Assembly (NCBI GenBank): GCA_016700095.1
Contig: CP065002.1
Location: forward strand, 643,667-707,666
Direction of reading: 5' to 3'
DNA: 64,000 nucleotides
Source of the DNA: Candidatus Woesebacteria bacterium
GTDB taxonomy: Bacteria; Patescibacteriota; Microgenomatia; UBA8517
Each line of letters starts with the position of its first letter. The first letter of the stretch is position 1. The notes under the pieces were generated by a model. That model had not been told where the DNA came from. It worked only from the letters and a program-made list of their open reading frames with translations, and did no database searches. Positions 55,426-60,409 of the stretch are shown piece by piece. Made by a program: the position numbers and the translations under genes.

Positions 55426-55616
55426 AAGTTTATCACCCTACTTTATCACCCTACAGGTGAAATGAATTAACACAGCTCACTTTTTAGAATTAGTACGGTA
55501 ACTTAGAGTTAGTTGCCATCGGACGTTCATATATAGATATACCTTAAACTTACAGAATGCTTATTAAGAACAGTCCCAAGTATATAGCACATCACTAAAA
55601 TCTAGTTTTTGAAGAT

Positions 55617-56363
55617 TTACTGGTTTAATAAAAAGTTTGCTACTCCCACATCCCCCCACATTATTTCAGCAATATTTTGCTTTGGATAATACTCACTGTC
55701 CATTTGAAACAATAAGGTAGAATAATCTGTGAATTTATCATTGCCTCTGGGATCATCTTGAGTGAAATTGGGATAACCTCCTATTTTATGACCGGTTGGA
55801 TCAGAAAATTTAAGATATGTTTTAACTAACTCACTGTAAAAATCATCAAAAGCTTTGTCGTAATTAATTTCACTTTCATATCGAAAATCAACATAGGGAA
55901 TAGATGCGATACTTCTCTTGAATGTTAAAGAAAACTCATTTTCTAATACAAAGGTTTCTTTTGGGGTAGGCCAATCATAATCTAAAATCGGATTTGTATT
56001 AATGAATTGTTCTTTTGAAATATACAAGACCCTGAAATTATCTTGTTTTGTTCTGTTGGCAAAATCCAAACCCCTTAAATTGTTATCAGATATAAACATT
56101 TGTAGAATCCCTGTTTCCGGAAAATCAGCAAGTTTTGGTACTTCTTCAAAATTTATCTGAGCCAAAAATATCAACTTTTGACCTGCGGCATTTTTGGGGT
56201 ACTCAACTTCATCTATTAGCAATGGCTTACCCCCAAATTTGCTTTGAGTTGGAGATAACTCCTCGGAGACAGCTTGACTTTTAATAGCAATATATTCCTT
56301 AAAAGTTTTATTAATTCTATCTTCGTATTGTTTTAATATATTGGGTAATTCAGGTAAATCCAT
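55617..56363 (-). CDS. DUF1963 (YwqG-like) domain protein
   Basis: KFGGKP....LIFLAQINFEE....ETGILQMF ... GHKIGGYPNFTQDDP. Confidence 0.6.
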   Translation of the reverse strand: MDLPELPNILKQYEDRINKTFKEYIAIKSQAVSEELSPTQSKFGGKPLLIDEVEYPKNAAGQKLIFLAQINFEEVPKLADFPETGILQMFISDNNLRGLDFANRTKQDNFRVLYISKEQFINTNPILDYDWPTPKETFVLENEFSLTFKRSIASIPYVDFRYESEINYDKAFDDFYSELVKTYLKFSDPTGHKIGGYPNFTQDDPRGNDKFTDYSTLLFQMDSEYYPKQNIAEIMWGDVGVANFLLNQ

Positions 56364-56592
56364 GTTTAAATATTAACAATATATTAATATTACTACGAAC
56401 ATTTATTAAAAAGAATACTTGGAGTAACAAGGTATATATCTAATATGGATTATATCACCCTACAGGTGAAATGAATTAATACAGCTCACTTTTAAGAATT
56501 AATACAGTAACTTAGGATCAGCTACCATCGGACATTCGAACATGGATATACCTTAATCCTACAGAAAGCTTTATAAGAACAGTCACAAAATG

Positions 56593-57141
56593 GTTTATCA
56601 CCCTACAGGTGAAATGAATTAACACAGCTCACTTTTTAGAATTAGTACGGTAACTTAGAGTTAGTTGCCATCGGACGTTCATATATAGATATACCTTAAA
56701 CTTACAGAATGCTTATTAAGAACAGTCCCAAGTATATAGCACATCACTAAAATCTAGTTTTTGAAGATTTACTGGTTTAATAAAAAAGTTTGCTACTCCC
56801 ACATCCCCCCACATTATTTCAGCAATATTTTGCTTTGGATAATACTCACTGTCCATTTGAAACAATAAGGTAGAATAATCTGTGAATTTATCATTGCCTC
56901 TGGGATCATCTTGAGTGAAATTGGGATAACCTCCTATTTTATGACCGGTTGGATCAGAAAATTTAAGATATGTTTTAACTAACTCACTGTAAAAATCATC
57001 AAAAGCTTTGTCGTAATTAATTTCACTTTCATATCGAAAATCAACATAGGGAATAGATGCGATACTTCTCTTGAATGTTAAAGAAAACTCATTTTCTAAT
57101 ACGAAGGTTTCTTTTGGGGTAGGCCAATCATAATCTAAAAT
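56593..57141 (+). repeat. About 550-bp segmental duplication of 55428-55988 (repeat core plus tRNA-like module plus the 3' 372 bp of the DUF1963 gene)
   Basis: More than 98% identical. One 13-nt and one 1-nt indel. Confidence 0.85.
56770..57141 (-). pseudogene. Truncated duplicate (C-terminal about 120 codons) of the DUF1963 gene, carrying a 1-nt insertion in a poly-A run
   Basis: Copy of 55617-55988. It lacks its 5' two-thirds and promoter. An A8-to-A9 frameshift lies near the 3' end. Confidence 0.7.
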
Positions 57142-57386
57142 AAATCCTCAACAAAATTAATCAAATTCTTTAATTGAAGAATTAATCTATTTATCCATAT
57201 CCTTTGTGTGAAGATTAGCTTATATTCACCACTTACCACAAAAGACAATCTTTACCTCTCTCGAGTTTATAATATTATCCCCCAATAAAAGCGTTAATAG
57301 TCATATCAATACAAAATGTCTTATTGATATTTTGCTTGGTAAGCTTGGAATTCCTATAAAGTAAAAAACCTGTCATTTTTTTTAGT

Positions 57387-57959
57387 TTGCTATATAATAT
57401 GTTTATGGTAGAAAAAGAGGCAAATTATTATGGCGATCCCGTTAACGACTTTGAATTAAGAATAGTTCAAAAGCCAAAAGAAGAAAAAGGGCAAACTTAT
57501 GATAATGGCATTCAAGGTGAAACTGACGGCTTGTTAGATGTTGTCAGAAAAATTGTTCCAGAAGATGTTTTAGTTAAAATGGGTGGGCAAATCACAACAG
57601 TTTCTCTGGGCGGGACATTTAGTGAGAAAAGTATCGTCTTACCAAACACACCTCTCGTGCGCGATCCCGAGAAAGATGCGAGATCTCATGGAGGCGGAGC
57701 TAGTCCTGGAATGGGTGGTATGCGAACAGAACAAACGTTTTATCACGATGGAACTCAGGTAGATACAGTTGCCCCAGAGGCTCCCAAAAAGAGTAGACTT
57801 TCTGGTTTATTTGGTCGGGGTACTAAAACACCTCCGAAAAGATTGGTAAATGGTGCGCGAAACATAGTATCAGTAACCATTGGAAGCGACGATGAAATAA
57901 AAGATTTTAAAGTTAATAATATCGTCGTATACGAATATATTGATACCCCCGATCAGTAA
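57387..57959 (+). CDS. Hypothetical protein (Gly-rich central region)
   Basis: ORF only. Confidence 0.35.
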   Translation: MLYNMFMVEKEANYYGDPVNDFELRIVQKPKEEKGQTYDNGIQGETDGLLDVVRKIVPEDVLVKMGGQITTVSLGGTFSEKSIVLPNTPLVRDPEKDARSHGGGASPGMGGMRTEQTFYHDGTQVDTVAPEAPKKSRLSGLFGRGTKTPPKRLVNGARNIVSVTIGSDDEIKDFKVNNIVVYEYIDTPDQ

Positions 57960-57976
57960 TTTGCTATAATCTCCAC

Positions 57977-58607: not shown

Positions 58608-58640
58608 AGAGTGGATGGCTGGACGACGTTCGAACCTATT
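58608..58640 (+). other. Degenerate partial copy of the tRNA-His 3' end (T-arm plus acceptor region), following repeat copy 58547
   Basis: GTGGATGGCTGGACGACGTTCGAACC versus the authentic GGTGGCTGACGAGTCTCGAACCCGCG at 60335. Confidence 0.55.
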
Positions 58641-58761
58641 TCGTGCCTATTTCAGTAGATTATCAGGTGATTAAAAGCATGTTATTACTTCAAGAAAAAG
58701 CTCAGTTTACCAATGTTTGACTGAACAGTAGAGTGCGAATTTCCTTCAGGCTAGAAAACAT

Positions 58762-59340
58762 TTAATCTGCAAAAACAGGGGTAATTTCAAAATTCACAGT
58801 CTTTATTCGCTGGTCAAGTTTTATAACTTTCAATTCATCTACAAATTCAATTACTGGTGCAGATGTTTCTTTTTCTAGAGATTTTTCGAGTTCCTCATTA
58901 TTGTAAAAACGGACAGATAATGATAAATCGTAATCACTACCAAGTTTCAAACTGTTTGGCCAAGGCTCCACAAATCTATACTTATAAACTCTTTTGCTAT
59001 TTGTCTCAGTTTCCAACCACACGCAATTATCTTGTCCTTTCTTGCATAATTCACTGCTTTGAATTCCAATGGCATCTTCACTGTCGTCATGTTTGGAAGT
59101 GGTTATACTTATGTTGTCATGCACTTGGTCACTATTTATCTGTTTATATATTATTGTTACTTCACCTTCAATAACATTGGAATTTTCATCTTCATCAATA
59201 ATGGAGTCTTTACTAATATCCTTCTTAGAAGGATTCTGTTTATTGTTGTTTGAAAAAAATGTTACTCCAACCCCAATCGCAACTATCATAGTTATTAAAA
59301 ACAAAAATAATGGTAATGCAAATCCTTTTTCATCTTTCAT
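58762..59340 (-). CDS. Hypothetical secreted or membrane-anchored protein
   Basis: N-terminal TM/signal. Acidic. Confidence 0.4.
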   Translation of the reverse strand: MKDEKGFALPLFLFLITMIVAIGVGVTFFSNNNKQNPSKKDISKDSIIDEDENSNVIEGEVTIIYKQINSDQVHDNISITTSKHDDSEDAIGIQSSELCKKGQDNCVWLETETNSKRVYKYRFVEPWPNSLKLGSDYDLSLSVRFYNNEELEKSLEKETSAPVIEFVDELKVIKLDQRIKTVNFEITPVFAD

Positions 59341-59465
59341 GTATTAATGTTAATATTTACTTATTCAATATGCAAATACTAAGATGAGCAACTCGAACTA
59401 ATTATAACGGATATGACAAAGCTTTATGAAGTATTTGGCAGGAAAATGGCATATAATTATTCATT

Positions 59466-60071
59466 ATGAATATCAATCAAAAAGTAAAGGCAGGCTACAA
59501 CATTGCCGCTAAAAACTATACTTCAGAATTTCGAGACCAATTCAAAAATGAAAAACATCTAGCTAAGTTGGTAGATGTTTTGTCTCCAAGATCAAGCATT
59601 CTTGATGTTGGCTGTGGAGCCGGTAAACCAATTGATAGCTATCTTGTTTCAAAAGGTATGAAAGTAACAGGTATCGATATTTCTGAAGCCCAAATAGAGT
59701 TGGCAAAATCATATGTACCAGAAGCTAATTACGAAGTCCGTGACATGTCTGAGCTACAAGATGGTGAATATGAAGTAGATGCCGTTGTTTCTTTTTACGC
59801 CATTTTTCACACCCCAAGAGAGAACCATGCTGACTTACTGAAGAAGTTCAAGTCTTTTCTGAAATCAGATGGATACTTGCTTATTACGATGGGAGCTAAT
59901 GATTGGGTAGGCAAAGAAGATAATTTCTGTGGATCAGAAATGTATTGGAGTCATTACGGTGCAGATAAAAATAAGGAGCTGATTGAAAAAGCAGGGTTTG
60001 ACATCATTTTCTCTGAGGTCGATGATGCAGGCGGAGAAAAACATTTGATTATATTAGCCAAAGCTAAGTAG
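59466..60071 (+). CDS. Class I SAM-dependent methyltransferase
   Basis: ILDVGCGAGKPI (motif I) and an acidic-residue motif II. Confidence 0.7.
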   Translation: MNINQKVKAGYNIAAKNYTSEFRDQFKNEKHLAKLVDVLSPRSSILDVGCGAGKPIDSYLVSKGMKVTGIDISEAQIELAKSYVPEANYEVRDMSELQDGEYEVDAVVSFYAIFHTPRENHADLLKKFKSFLKSDGYLLITMGANDWVGKEDNFCGSEMYWSHYGADKNKELIEKAGFDIIFSEVDDAGGEKHLIILAKAK

Positions 60072-60334
60072 GAATAGTTTCTATTTGGGGTCGGTTGCCA
60101 TCGGATGTTAGTATATCACCCTACAGGTGAAATGAATTAACACAGCTCACTTTTTAGAATTAGTACGGTAACTTAGGATCAGCTACCATCGGACATTCGA
60201 ACATGGATATACCTTAATCCTACAGAAAGCTTTATGAGAACAGTCACAAAATGGATTTATTGAAAAAAGATTATCACCCTACAGGTGAAATGAATTAACA
60301 CAGCTCACTTTTAAGAATTAATACAGTAACTTAG

Positions 60335-60409
60335 GGTGGCTGACGAGTCTCGAACCCGCGACCTCCGCTTCCACAGAGCGGCGCTCTAACCAACTGAGCT
60401 ACAGCCACC
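60335..60409 (-). tRNA. tRNA-His (anticodon GUG) with genomically encoded G-1 and C73
   Basis: G-GTGGCTGTAGCTCAGTTGGTTAGAGC, anticodon loop CU-GUG-GA, T-arm GCGGGTTCGAGACTCG, 3' end ...CAGCCAC-C. Confidence 0.8.

Follow-up and report, generated by a model that had tools for sequence, protein, structure and literature searches.

A compact array of small gene modules beside tRNA-His in a Candidatus Woesebacteria bacterium, most likely left by repeated insertion at a tRNA end

What process could have assembled, beside a tRNA-His gene, an array of about 5 kb in which small accessory-gene modules are separated by near-identical repeats of 63 bp? The array lies in a 64-kb stretch of DNA (hereafter the window) from a Candidatus Woesebacteria bacterium, a member of the CPR with a tiny genome. 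Most likely, small mobile pieces of DNA were inserted again and again at the tRNA end and left this array as their scar, one of two possibilities raised by a previous sequence-only reading, the other being an integron-like cassette array.

The repeats noticed in that reading, about nine co-oriented copies of roughly 62 bp, proved real. The 63-bp core occurs in six full copies (94–100% identical, detected with at most two mismatches; Table 1) and three truncated ones, all on the plus strand between 55431 and 60334, where shuffled sequences give an expectation of zero full-core matches. No further copy was found by pattern search, blastn-short or nhmmer in the other 59 kb of the window, although 13 more tRNA genes lie there. 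The last copy, core F, had been described as running into the 3′ end of tRNA-His, and it ends exactly at that point. The tRNA gene itself had been correctly assigned to the minus strand, but its placement at 60335-60409 was off by one, since ARAGORN gives 60334-60408 and Rfam 60335-60408. On the opposite side of the array, homology with a relative (L033) stops at 55429, 1–2 nt short of the first repeat.

The modules delimited by the cores also correspond to the earlier description, comprising a DUF1963 gene, a duplicate containing a fragment of it, three orphan ORFs and a SAM-dependent methyltransferase gene. The duplicate spans 547 bp, its sequence at 56594-57141 being equal to 55442-55988 save for one homopolymer indel and one substitution, with a period of 1152 bp, and the NCBI annotation places a 141-aa product (P0121) at the DUF1963 fragment. 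Searches of Pfam, PHROGs, PADLOC, NCBIfam and PDB gave no hit for the ORF at 57387. The suggestion that DUF1963 hints at toxin/immunity cargo gained no support, and the ORFs next to it could be assigned to no known family. The array genes lie on both strands without a common orientation, and three repeat-bounded “elements” of 89–158 bp each carry no cargo. Since contents differ between modules and the nearest outside homologues of the DUF1963 gene are only 44% identical, duplication alone cannot make the array. As previously remarked, no recombination enzyme is apparent in the window: a Pfam search covering nearly all of its ORFs identified no integrase, recombinase or transposase.

Table 1. 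Features of the tRNA-His array, in coordinates of the 64-kb window
Feature	Positions	Strand	Remarks
Leftmost truncated core, first 11 nt TATCACCCTAC	55431..55441	+	5 nt past the stop codon of ORF 54883-55425
Core A, allele alpha	55444..55506	+	
T2 segment, after core A	55507..55590	+	Member of the ~80-nt T family
DUF1963/YwqG-family gene, intact, 248 aa	55617..56363	-	Pfam E 1.5e-48; PDB 1PV5 YwqG, E 5e-31
Core B, allele beta with one private change	56453..56515	+	
T1 segment	56516..56595	+	Abuts core C directly
Core C, allele alpha	56596..56658	+	Equal to core A in sequence
T2 copy and 3′ fragment of DUF1963 gene	56659..57141	-	Body of the 547-bp duplicate
Orphan ORF, 190 aa	57387..57959	+	
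Orphan Cys-rich ORF, 68 aa	57977..58183	+	
Two truncated cores	58475-58491 (17 nt) and 58493-58536 (44 nt)	+	
Core D, alpha/beta hybrid allele	58547..58609	+	
Indel-containing partial copy of the tRNA-His 3′ end, from T loop to acceptor end	58610..58636	-	27 nt long, follows core D
Orphan ORF, 192 aa, hydrophobic N-terminal segment	58762..59340	-	
Class I SAM-dependent methyltransferase, 201 aa	59466..60071	+	
Core-less T2-like fragment (preE)	60088..60113	+	z 6.2 vs T2; nhmmer E 0.018, whole window
Core E, allele alpha	60114..60176	+	
T1 segment, after core E	60177..60256	+	98.7% identical to copy at 56516
Core F, allele beta, abuts tRNA-His 3′ end	60272..60334	+	Junction confirmed, short-read contig L001
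Intact tRNA-His (GTG), array anchor	60335..60408	-	ARAGORN; Rfam 63.3 bits

Each core had been thought to be followed by a degraded copy of the tRNA-His 3′ end. This holds after core D and not after A, B, C or E, so that a tRNA origin can be demonstrated for only one of the five segments that follow these cores. The one after core D matches tRNA-His with a local z of 7.3, the highest among the 14 tRNA genes of the window (13 besides tRNA-His), and with a semi-global p of 0.009; its register to core D is that of the intact tRNA to its own core, as in a classical att-type direct repeat. The remaining four cores are followed by members of a family of about 80 nt, designated T, with T2 after A and C and T1 after B and E. 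T1, T2 and the core-less fragment preE are homologous among themselves (z 5–6), and show no detectable similarity to tRNA-His (z at or below 0) and no match to the Rfam tRNA model, even at E-values up to 10. Likewise, the supposed decay of similarity with distance from the tRNA was contradicted, because the nearest such copy, E, carries T1 and the true tRNA fragment occurs at the third junction. Additionally, the T1 segment at 56516 touches core C, and core B with T1 and core C with T2 therefore form a 143-bp tandem pair.

Identity changes abruptly at the core/T boundary, and from unit to unit the core and T alleles are found in shuffled combinations. Between A and E, the cores are 100% identical and the T segments 67–78%; between B and E, the corresponding values are 94% and 96–100%. 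The combinations alpha-T2, alpha-T1, beta-T1 and beta-tRNA all occur, which indicates that exchange has happened at or near this boundary. Moreover, conservation is much higher in the cores than in the adjoining partial tRNA, a disparity for which the cores must have undergone selection, conversion or recent turnover.

The fragment preE is fused on its left side to the 3′ flank of the methyltransferase gene and cut on its right side by core E. The sequence to its left bears no resemblance to the core (z about 0), and the fragment ends no more than about 3 nt from the core/T boundary. It is read as a putative hybrid (attR-like) junction, X/T without core. Its position at 60088 suggests that the tRNA was flanked at the last insertion by the methyltransferase 3′ region and, consequently, that the core is at least partly element-borne; the core had been taken for the native flank of the tRNA, which is not established.

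The islet is thought, with somewhat more confidence than doubt, to have arisen by tandem accretion of tiny, now integrase-less elements downstream of tRNA-His, followed by reshuffling through their own repeats. Such elements would form a family with an attachment region of about 143 bp, composed of the T arm of about 80 nt and the 63-nt core, and would be served by a site-specific recombinase, probably a tyrosine recombinase, whose gene would lie in another part of the genome or have disappeared. Strand exchange would occur at, or a few nucleotides from, the core/T boundary (TTAG/RRT), a position equivalent to the extreme 3′ end of tRNA-His; with every insertion, core/tRNA would be left on the tRNA side and T/old-flank on the far side, and successive related insertions would give rise to internal, attP-like T+core junctions. 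A second element, containing ORF 58762, the methyltransferase gene and the true tRNA-His 3′-end copy, may have entered after one wave of T/core insertions and before another, which would explain both the partial tRNA by core D and the core-less T by the methyltransferase gene. Homologous or site-specific exchange between cores could have generated the 1152-bp tandem duplication, the cargo-less units of 143–158 bp and the truncated cores.

Accretion is favoured by the common orientation of the cores, their confinement to 5 kb beside tRNA-His and the loss of homology in the relative just before the first repeat. The earlier proposal, in which site-specific insertion recurred at a tRNA 3′ end and the recombinase acted in trans or has since been lost, is further supported by the in-register partial tRNA, the sharp core/T break, the core-less X/T junction, the window without an identified recombinase, and parallel partial-tRNA scars at three other tRNA genes of the window, tRNA-Gly, tRNA-Arg and tRNA-Leu. 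At tRNA-Gly, the 3′ end and flank are repeated over 69 nt at a distance of 4.6 kb, and here too the flank has been preserved better than the tRNA portion; at tRNA-Arg, the partial copy of the 3′ end measures 57 nt. On the other side count the absence of a recombinase among the window ORFs, the lack of a tRNA-His match in the T family, the much higher conservation of the cores than of the adjoining partial tRNA, and a dyad at the core/T junction that is not less frequent than expected by chance (about 1 per 350 bp). The leftmost junction is core/T, where a simple accretion model predicts native-flank/T, and a circular intermediate is implausible for units as small as 89–158 bp, which makes it necessary to assume secondary rearrangement. 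It also weighs against accretion that the public collections searched yielded neither a related array nor an empty site nor a population variant, for which reason mobility can only be inferred.

A rather doubtful alternative requires no dedicated recombinase. The core would be the native trailer of a highly transcribed tRNA-His gene, the array would have grown by unequal homologous recombination, replication slippage and illegitimate joins, and foreign genes would have entered by illegitimate or homology-facilitated recombination. The 547-bp duplication with its 1152-bp period, the 143-bp tandem units and the short tandem partial cores, typical of slippage, are in agreement with such growth, as are the tandem duplications at tRNA-Leu (a 119-bp unit in 4.1 copies) and tRNA-Arg (a 5′ copy of 18 nt), the window without an encoded recombinase, and core F, whose distal end bears a small hairpin and a T-run resembling a tRNA terminator. 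However, modules of unrelated content cannot come from duplication, the breaks recur at two sharp core boundaries beside six different neighbours, the core-less T fragment ends close to one of them, and a 27-nt partial tRNA in register is a specific signature of integrase-type insertion. It is improbable that the core+T unit of 143 bp has hopped locally as a MITE-, PATE- or REP-like transposable element without its own transposase, with the gene modules as intervening DNA. Although the unit is short, non-coding, multi-copy and sharp-ended, occurs with and without neighbours and bears a 5-bp hairpin (TCACC...GGTGA) with GTAG inside near one end, it lacks terminal inverted repeats and substantial subterminal hairpins, keeps a single orientation within the 5 kb, is accompanied by no transposase in the window and has no counterpart in the viral, metagenomic and genomic collections searched. 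In addition, cores without T (D and F) and T without core (preE) point to reciprocal exchange rather than unit transposition.

The integron-like array, or a CALIN, in which attC sites cluster away from any integron integrase and the core would be an attC-type site, is very unlikely. Superficially, the array does resemble the Vibrio cholerae repeat (VCR) arrays of chromosomal integrons and the CALINs (Cury et al. 2016, PMC4889954) in its small, cassette-sized modules, its homogeneous co-oriented repeat, the presence of duplicated as well as empty units, and possibly the lack of a nearby integrase. However, attC is an imperfect palindrome recombined as a folded single strand, and cassettes are mostly co-oriented, whereas here neither core nor core+T folds as single-stranded DNA better than shuffles on either strand (z -0.9 to +0.3), the R''/L''-L'/R' palindrome was not seen, and the genes point both ways. 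No IntI or other recombinase was found in the window either, and on these combined grounds the integron reading fails; the partial tRNA at one junction, too, is not an integron product. An assembly artefact, with repeats collapsed or mis-joined in a metagenome-assembled genome, is scarcely credible. The short-read contigs of SRR11674018 do break inside cores, and the homopolymer-length difference between the duplicate copies is a typical long-read error; yet the source contig measures 1,274,238 bp, the two copies are also distinguished by a substitution and by the sequence that follows each on its right, and three junctions recur at 100% identity in that independent assembly, namely ORF54883/core A, core D/partial tRNA/ORF58762 (contig L028) and core F/tRNA/atpB (contig L001).

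Accretion at an RNA gene has precedents. In Dehalococcoides, islands lie in tandem downstream of ssrA, a small RNA gene, inserted in its T-loop/3′ region; between them stand direct repeats of the ssrA 3′ end, each surrounded by additional conserved sequence that is not alignable with the RNA gene (PMC3146451); some lack integration genes and were read as cis-mobilizable remnants (McMurdie et al. 2011, PMC3146451). The tRNA-His array resembles them in its tandem modules, its extra conservation by the repeat and its lack of local integration genes. However, their repeat is a 20-bp ssrA piece and the islands span several kb, many with a serine-recombinase module, whereas the repeat described here is a 63-bp flank, the modules measure 0.09–2 kb, no recombinase is in view and a recognisable RNA-gene piece occurs at one junction only. 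Another published analogue is the site-specific accretion of CIMEs with ICEs and IMEs, exemplified by ICESt1-related elements at fda and tRNA-Lys tandems (reviewed in PMC5704250). Known CIMEs are kilobases long and derive from identifiable ICEs, and their cognate integrase is encoded in the host genome or in that of a sister strain or species, while the tRNA-His array has no known parent element or integrase, and its CPR host no known conjugation system. The tycheposon islands of Prochlorococcus grow additively at the tRNA-proximal end, with partial tRNA copies between elements (10.1101/2020.12.28.424599), and share with the present array this mode of growth, a partial-tRNA separator, degenerated remnants and a streamlined genome (Hackl et al.). 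Tycheposons, however, possess a tyrosine recombinase together with genes for replication or packaging, hallmarks absent here, and their repeats are partial tRNAs. The islet would represent an already known sort of genomic island, but an unusually compact one.

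The array at tRNA-His is real and non-random. The sequence-only reading had described same-orientation repeats of about 62 bp, and a pattern search of the window confirmed them, recovering six full copies of a 63-bp core (A to F, left to right) with no more than two mismatches, together with three truncated copies, all of them on the plus strand, the number of matches expected in shuffles being zero. The last copy had been described as running into the intact tRNA-His, and indeed core F ends (60334) exactly at the tRNA 3′ end, so that the array begins at the intact tRNA 3′ end. 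The remaining 59 kb of the window include 13 other tRNA genes and yielded no further copy in a pattern search, in blastn-short or with an nhmmer profile. All pairs of cores are 94-100% identical, and the copies can be assigned to an alpha, a beta or a hybrid allele. The left edge of the core is as sharp as the right one and adjoins six different sequences. The promoter scan detected no consensus promoter in the cores, and a weak terminator-like hairpin with a T-run was seen at copies F and D only. Additionally, three contigs of an independent short-read assembly (SRR11674018) are 100% identical to the window and end inside cores, confirming the junctions between the left-flank ORF (ORF54883) and core A, from core D through the partial tRNA to ORF58762, and from core F through tRNA-His to atpB. 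Since these three junctions were reproduced independently, misassembly is unlikely, and very little weight is given to an assembly artefact; the order of the modules is supported by the long contig alone.

Positions of the array components and of the other tRNA-linked features in the window
Feature	Position	Strand	Remark
PD-(D/E)XK nuclease fragment	99-608		
GIY-YIG domain ORF	11529-11798		
tRNA-Gly(gcc) end and flank, direct repeat	13825-13893 / 18406-18474		
EEP (Exo_endo_phos) nuclease	15344-16204		
111-nt direct repeat	16173-16283 / 19413-19523		
EamA transporter paralogues	16307-17221 / 24317-25168		
Small paralogous ORFs	17163-17426 / 18188-18475		
Copy of tRNA-Arg first 18 nt	28440-28457		
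tRNA-Arg(tcg)	28498-28570		
Tandem 30-bp repeats	28598-28864		
Partial copy of tRNA-Arg	28859-28915		
Tandem 119-bp units before tRNA-Leu(taa)	33409-33954		
PRTase-like gene	53203-53955		
Peptidase S51 gene	54009-54638		
ORF54883	54883-55425		left-flank ORF
Truncated core	55431	+	11 nt
Duplicated segment and its duplicate	55442-55988 / 56594-57141		
Core A	55444	+	alpha
A5/A6 homopolymer	55630 / 56782		
Core B	56453	+	beta
Core C	56596	+	alpha
Orphan ORF	57387		
Orphan ORF	57977		
Truncated core	58475	+	17 nt
Truncated core	58493	+	44 nt
Core D	58547	+	hybrid
Segment after core D	58610-58636		
Orphan ORF	58762		
Class I SAM methyltransferase			one module gene
Core-less T2-like fragment	60088-60113		26 nt
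Core E	60114	+	alpha
Core F	60272	+	beta
tRNA-His (GTG)	60335-60408	-	intact

The module contents named previously, that is, the DUF1963 gene, a duplicate with a DUF1963 fragment, three further ORFs and a SAM methyltransferase gene, are all present. The DUF1963/YwqG gene is intact and has a PDB match to 1PV5, and the duplicate, which differs from its counterpart by one homopolymer indel and one substitution, holds a truncated, frameshifted DUF1963 fragment. The A5/A6 homopolymer separates the two DUF1963 3′ copies and frameshifts the C-terminus of the fragment; this difference may be genuine or may stem from an error of long-read sequencing. The module ORFs are divided between the strands, two being minus and three plus. 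Cores form the boundaries of the modules, whose coding content is limited to DUF1963, the orphan ORFs and the methyltransferase, with no integration or transfer genes, as in a cis-mobilizable element (CIME). No exact record was retrieved for the methyltransferase, DUF1963 or ORF57387 protein.

Each segment following a core was compared with the full set of 14 tRNAs in the window, and dinucleotide shuffles served as the control for the scores. The only one resembling tRNA-His is that after core D (z 7.3; p 0.009 in a semi-global test), whose alignment, including three indels, covers the stretch between T loop and acceptor end and whose best match among the 14 tRNAs is tRNA-His. The segments of about 80 nt found after cores A and C (T2) and after cores B and E (T1) are homologous to each other and to the core-less fragment (z 5-6), and none of these resembles tRNA-His (z at or below 0). 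With the Rfam tRNA model at E up to 10, no match was obtained in T1, T2, the core-less fragment or the copy-D region. A direct repeat of the tRNA 3′ end at the far boundary is thus significant at one junction, and four T segments are not detectably tRNA-derived; the possibility that a whole T segment is a decayed full-length tRNA was also tried and rejected, because none of the 14 tRNAs gave a significant score. Therefore, the progressive decay of tRNA ends with distance that had been claimed is not supported, since the T family is unlike tRNA-His and the partial tRNA stands at the third junction from the tRNA, the nearest junction having T1. A motif noticed post hoc and by eye, GAC[G/A]TTCGAAC, which D and T1 share at the same offset from the core (11/13 positions), hints that T may possibly have descended from a tRNA end.

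Regarding the anatomy of the junctions, identity to the right of the core drops to 50-67% unless both copies share a T type. Cores A and E are identical and are followed by T2 and T1, respectively, whereas B and E have T1 in common (96-100%) and differ at four core positions; in fact, the core alleles pair freely with T2, T1, tRNA and partial tRNA. These free combinations, together with the step in identity, indicate that exchange took place at or near the boundary between core and T. The core-less fragment is a T2-like arm that is fused on its left side to the methyltransferase 3′ flank and cut on its right side by core E. This flank shows no relationship to the core (z about 0), and the sequence left of the fragment was likewise rejected as a decayed core end (z about 0). 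Three kinds of junction are therefore found, namely core to T (four cases), core to tRNA or partial tRNA (two cases) and methyltransferase flank to T (one case), which is the set expected of reciprocal recombination between a core-T site and a flank-tRNA site. By eye, TT[A/T]G-RRT is common to all junctions at the switch point. Two other candidates were discarded. A 9-7-9 dyad spanning the core-T junction was considered as a recombinase site, but such dyads occur in the window at chance frequency, roughly one every 350 bp. The 15 nt adjoining core F on the left were compared with the end of ORF54883 and rejected as a copy of it (p 0.04 and 0.42).

An invariant 22-mer of the core, searched exactly, had 0 matches in genome, metagenome and viral contigs, and both the degenerate core-T junction pattern and the tRNA-His 3′ 23-mer had 0 in viral contigs. 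The two matches of the tRNA-His 3′ 20-mer in metagenome contigs are due to chance, lying within coding sequence and not in tRNAs, and when the entire array was compared by blastn with phage and plasmid records, the tRNA alone matched. AtpB relatives, sampled as one genome per species, reach at most 49% identity and have no tRNA-His nearby; in a large protein set, the best AtpB homologue (75% identity) is on a 1.4-kb contig and the rest are not syntenic. Flank proteins of 79% and 75% identity are present in SRR10580903 and SRR33375174, respectively. No orthologous tRNA-His locus was recovered in the searches with AtpB, the left-flank ORF or the tRNA-His 3′ end. Homologues of the left-flank ORF provided one useful relative, the contig L033, the others being not syntenic. 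L033 is 83% identical in nucleotides over the ORF54883 homologue, and this homology stops at 55429, 1-2 nt before the first repeat, the contig ending 48 nt further. In the alignment of L033 1-939 with 52769-55429 of the window, a NUDIX homologue directly adjoins the ORF54883 homologue, and the PRTase-like and peptidase S51 genes of the window are missing from L033, so the region left of the array is also variable.

Other tRNA genes of the window carry comparable scars. At tRNA-Gly(gcc), the terminal 21 nt of the gene and the adjoining 48 nt of 3′ flank are found again as a direct repeat 4.6 kb downstream with 88% overall identity, the flank matching at 46/48 positions and the tRNA part at 13/21, the same pattern as at tRNA-His. 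Between these repeats lie NUDIX, DUF523, TauE, EEP nuclease, EamA and small ORFs, none of them an integrase, and the region looks like a second islet bounded by tRNA flank. In or near it, a 111-nt direct repeat occurs whose copies are 91% identical and stand 3.2 kb apart, and two sets of paralogues are present, EamA transporter genes and small ORFs with the common motif ...DDxxKSYLL...AVKIILR.... Downstream of tRNA-Arg(tcg) there are 8.9 tandem copies of a 30-bp repeat, after which the tRNA 3′ part and flank reappear as a 57-nt partial copy (89% identical); upstream of the gene, its first 18 nt are duplicated exactly. Finally, tRNA-Leu(taa) is preceded by 4.1 tandem copies of a 119-bp unit, each containing the first approximately 31 nt of the tRNA preceded by an apparent promoter region. 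Partial duplications thus accompany 4 of the 14 tRNA genes, which points to tRNA-targeted insertion and local duplication as a general habit of this genome.

As to the machinery, no integrase, resolvase or transposase was found by Pfam among the ORFs of the window apart from a few not submitted, in agreement with the lack previously claimed for the 64 kb. The only nuclease-type hits of this screen were a small GIY-YIG ORF among tRNA-Leu genes and a PD-(D/E)XK fragment at the window start, neither of them a recombinase, and the EEP nuclease. Integron attC sites are imperfect palindromes that fold as single-stranded hairpins, and the cassettes are mostly co-oriented and promoterless; IntI, attI and Pc beside the array are an integron trait that a CALIN, an attC cluster without a nearby integron integrase, does not require. 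Folding of the core and of core plus T as single-stranded DNA, on both strands, was no better than in shuffles (z -0.9 to +0.3), and in the Rfam search over the array the tRNA alone matched, indicating neither an attC-like site nor a structured RNA. Given this folding result, the lack of a Phage_integrase (IntI) match in the window and genes on both strands, whereas integron and CALIN cassettes are mostly co-oriented, the integron-like alternative had to be abandoned, and an integron or CALIN is highly improbable here. A local MITE-like element is also improbable, although slightly less so: the terminal inverted repeats or subterminal hairpins of MITE, PATE and REP elements are lacking, as there are no inverted repeats between the unit ends and only a 5-bp hairpin, and, as to the dispersed copies typical of such elements, zero cores occur in the remaining 59 kb of the window and in public collections. 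Xer/dif modules (IMEX, pdif) are bounded by 28-bp dif-like sites of 11-6-11 structure, and pdif arrays alternate in orientation, whereas all repeats here are direct, the dif consensus having been compared by eye only. Pfam and PHROGs gave no tycheposon tyrosine recombinase or replication/packaging module.

The array is, on balance, probably a tRNA-His-anchored additive islet formed by tandem accretion of small elements now without an integrase. The repeated site-specific insertion at a tRNA 3′ end proposed earlier would therefore be broadly right, resting on the junction set, the partial tRNA and the mosaic core/T pattern. In such a scheme, the T plus core unit would correspond to an attP-like junction where one element meets the next of the same family, core-tRNA an attL-like end and the fusion of methyltransferase flank and T an attR-like end. 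The element with ORF58762 and the methyltransferase would have brought its own tRNA-His 3′ copy, entering between two waves of the T/core family, and recombination between cores could then have yielded the 1152-bp duplication, the cargo-less units of 143-158 bp and the truncated cores, with the recombinase acting in trans or lost. The array matches published patterns, namely the tandem ssrA islands of Dehalococcoides, with extra conservation around the repeat and some members without integration genes (PMC3146451), CIME accretion (PMC5704250) and the Prochlorococcus islands, whose elements are separated by partial tRNAs (10.1101/2020.12.28.424599). The weak points of accretion are that no recombinase is in view, that just one tRNA piece is recognisable, that circular intermediates as small as the "empty" units are implausible, that the leftmost junction lacks the native flank and that the cores are far better kept than the partial tRNA. 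If the array had grown around the native tRNA trailer through duplication and slippage, the duplicates would be accounted for, but not the unrelated cargoes, the recurrent sharp boundaries and the hybrid junction; this growth is considered rather unlikely. More doubtful still is a working gene-cassette platform of an undescribed kind, in which a chromosomal recombinase would insert, excise and reshuffle promoter-carrying modules of about 0.1-2 kb via a non-hairpin, double-stranded site of about 143 bp (T arm plus 63-bp core) at the tRNA-His end. If so, it would be a functional analogue of the integron without attC chemistry, core conservation would reflect recombination-site use, and the tRNA-Gly, tRNA-Arg and tRNA-Leu scars would be sister platforms.

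CPR/Patescibacteria genomes are very small and, to our knowledge, little is known about their routes of gene gain and loss. Because other tRNA-linked scars accompany the tRNA-His locus in the same 64 kb, the analysis suggests that accessory genes of this Woesebacteria genome are inserted at tRNA 3′ ends, in units that can be of extremely small size and have no integrase of their own. The array belongs to the known class of tRNA-anchored islands bounded by att repeats, its novelty being the CPR lineage and the unusually miniature form; thus, a known island-building mechanism is extended to a new lineage, and no new mechanism is revealed. Discovery of the cognate recombinase and of population variants would make the locus a compact model of gene flux in an uncultivated, host-dependent lineage.
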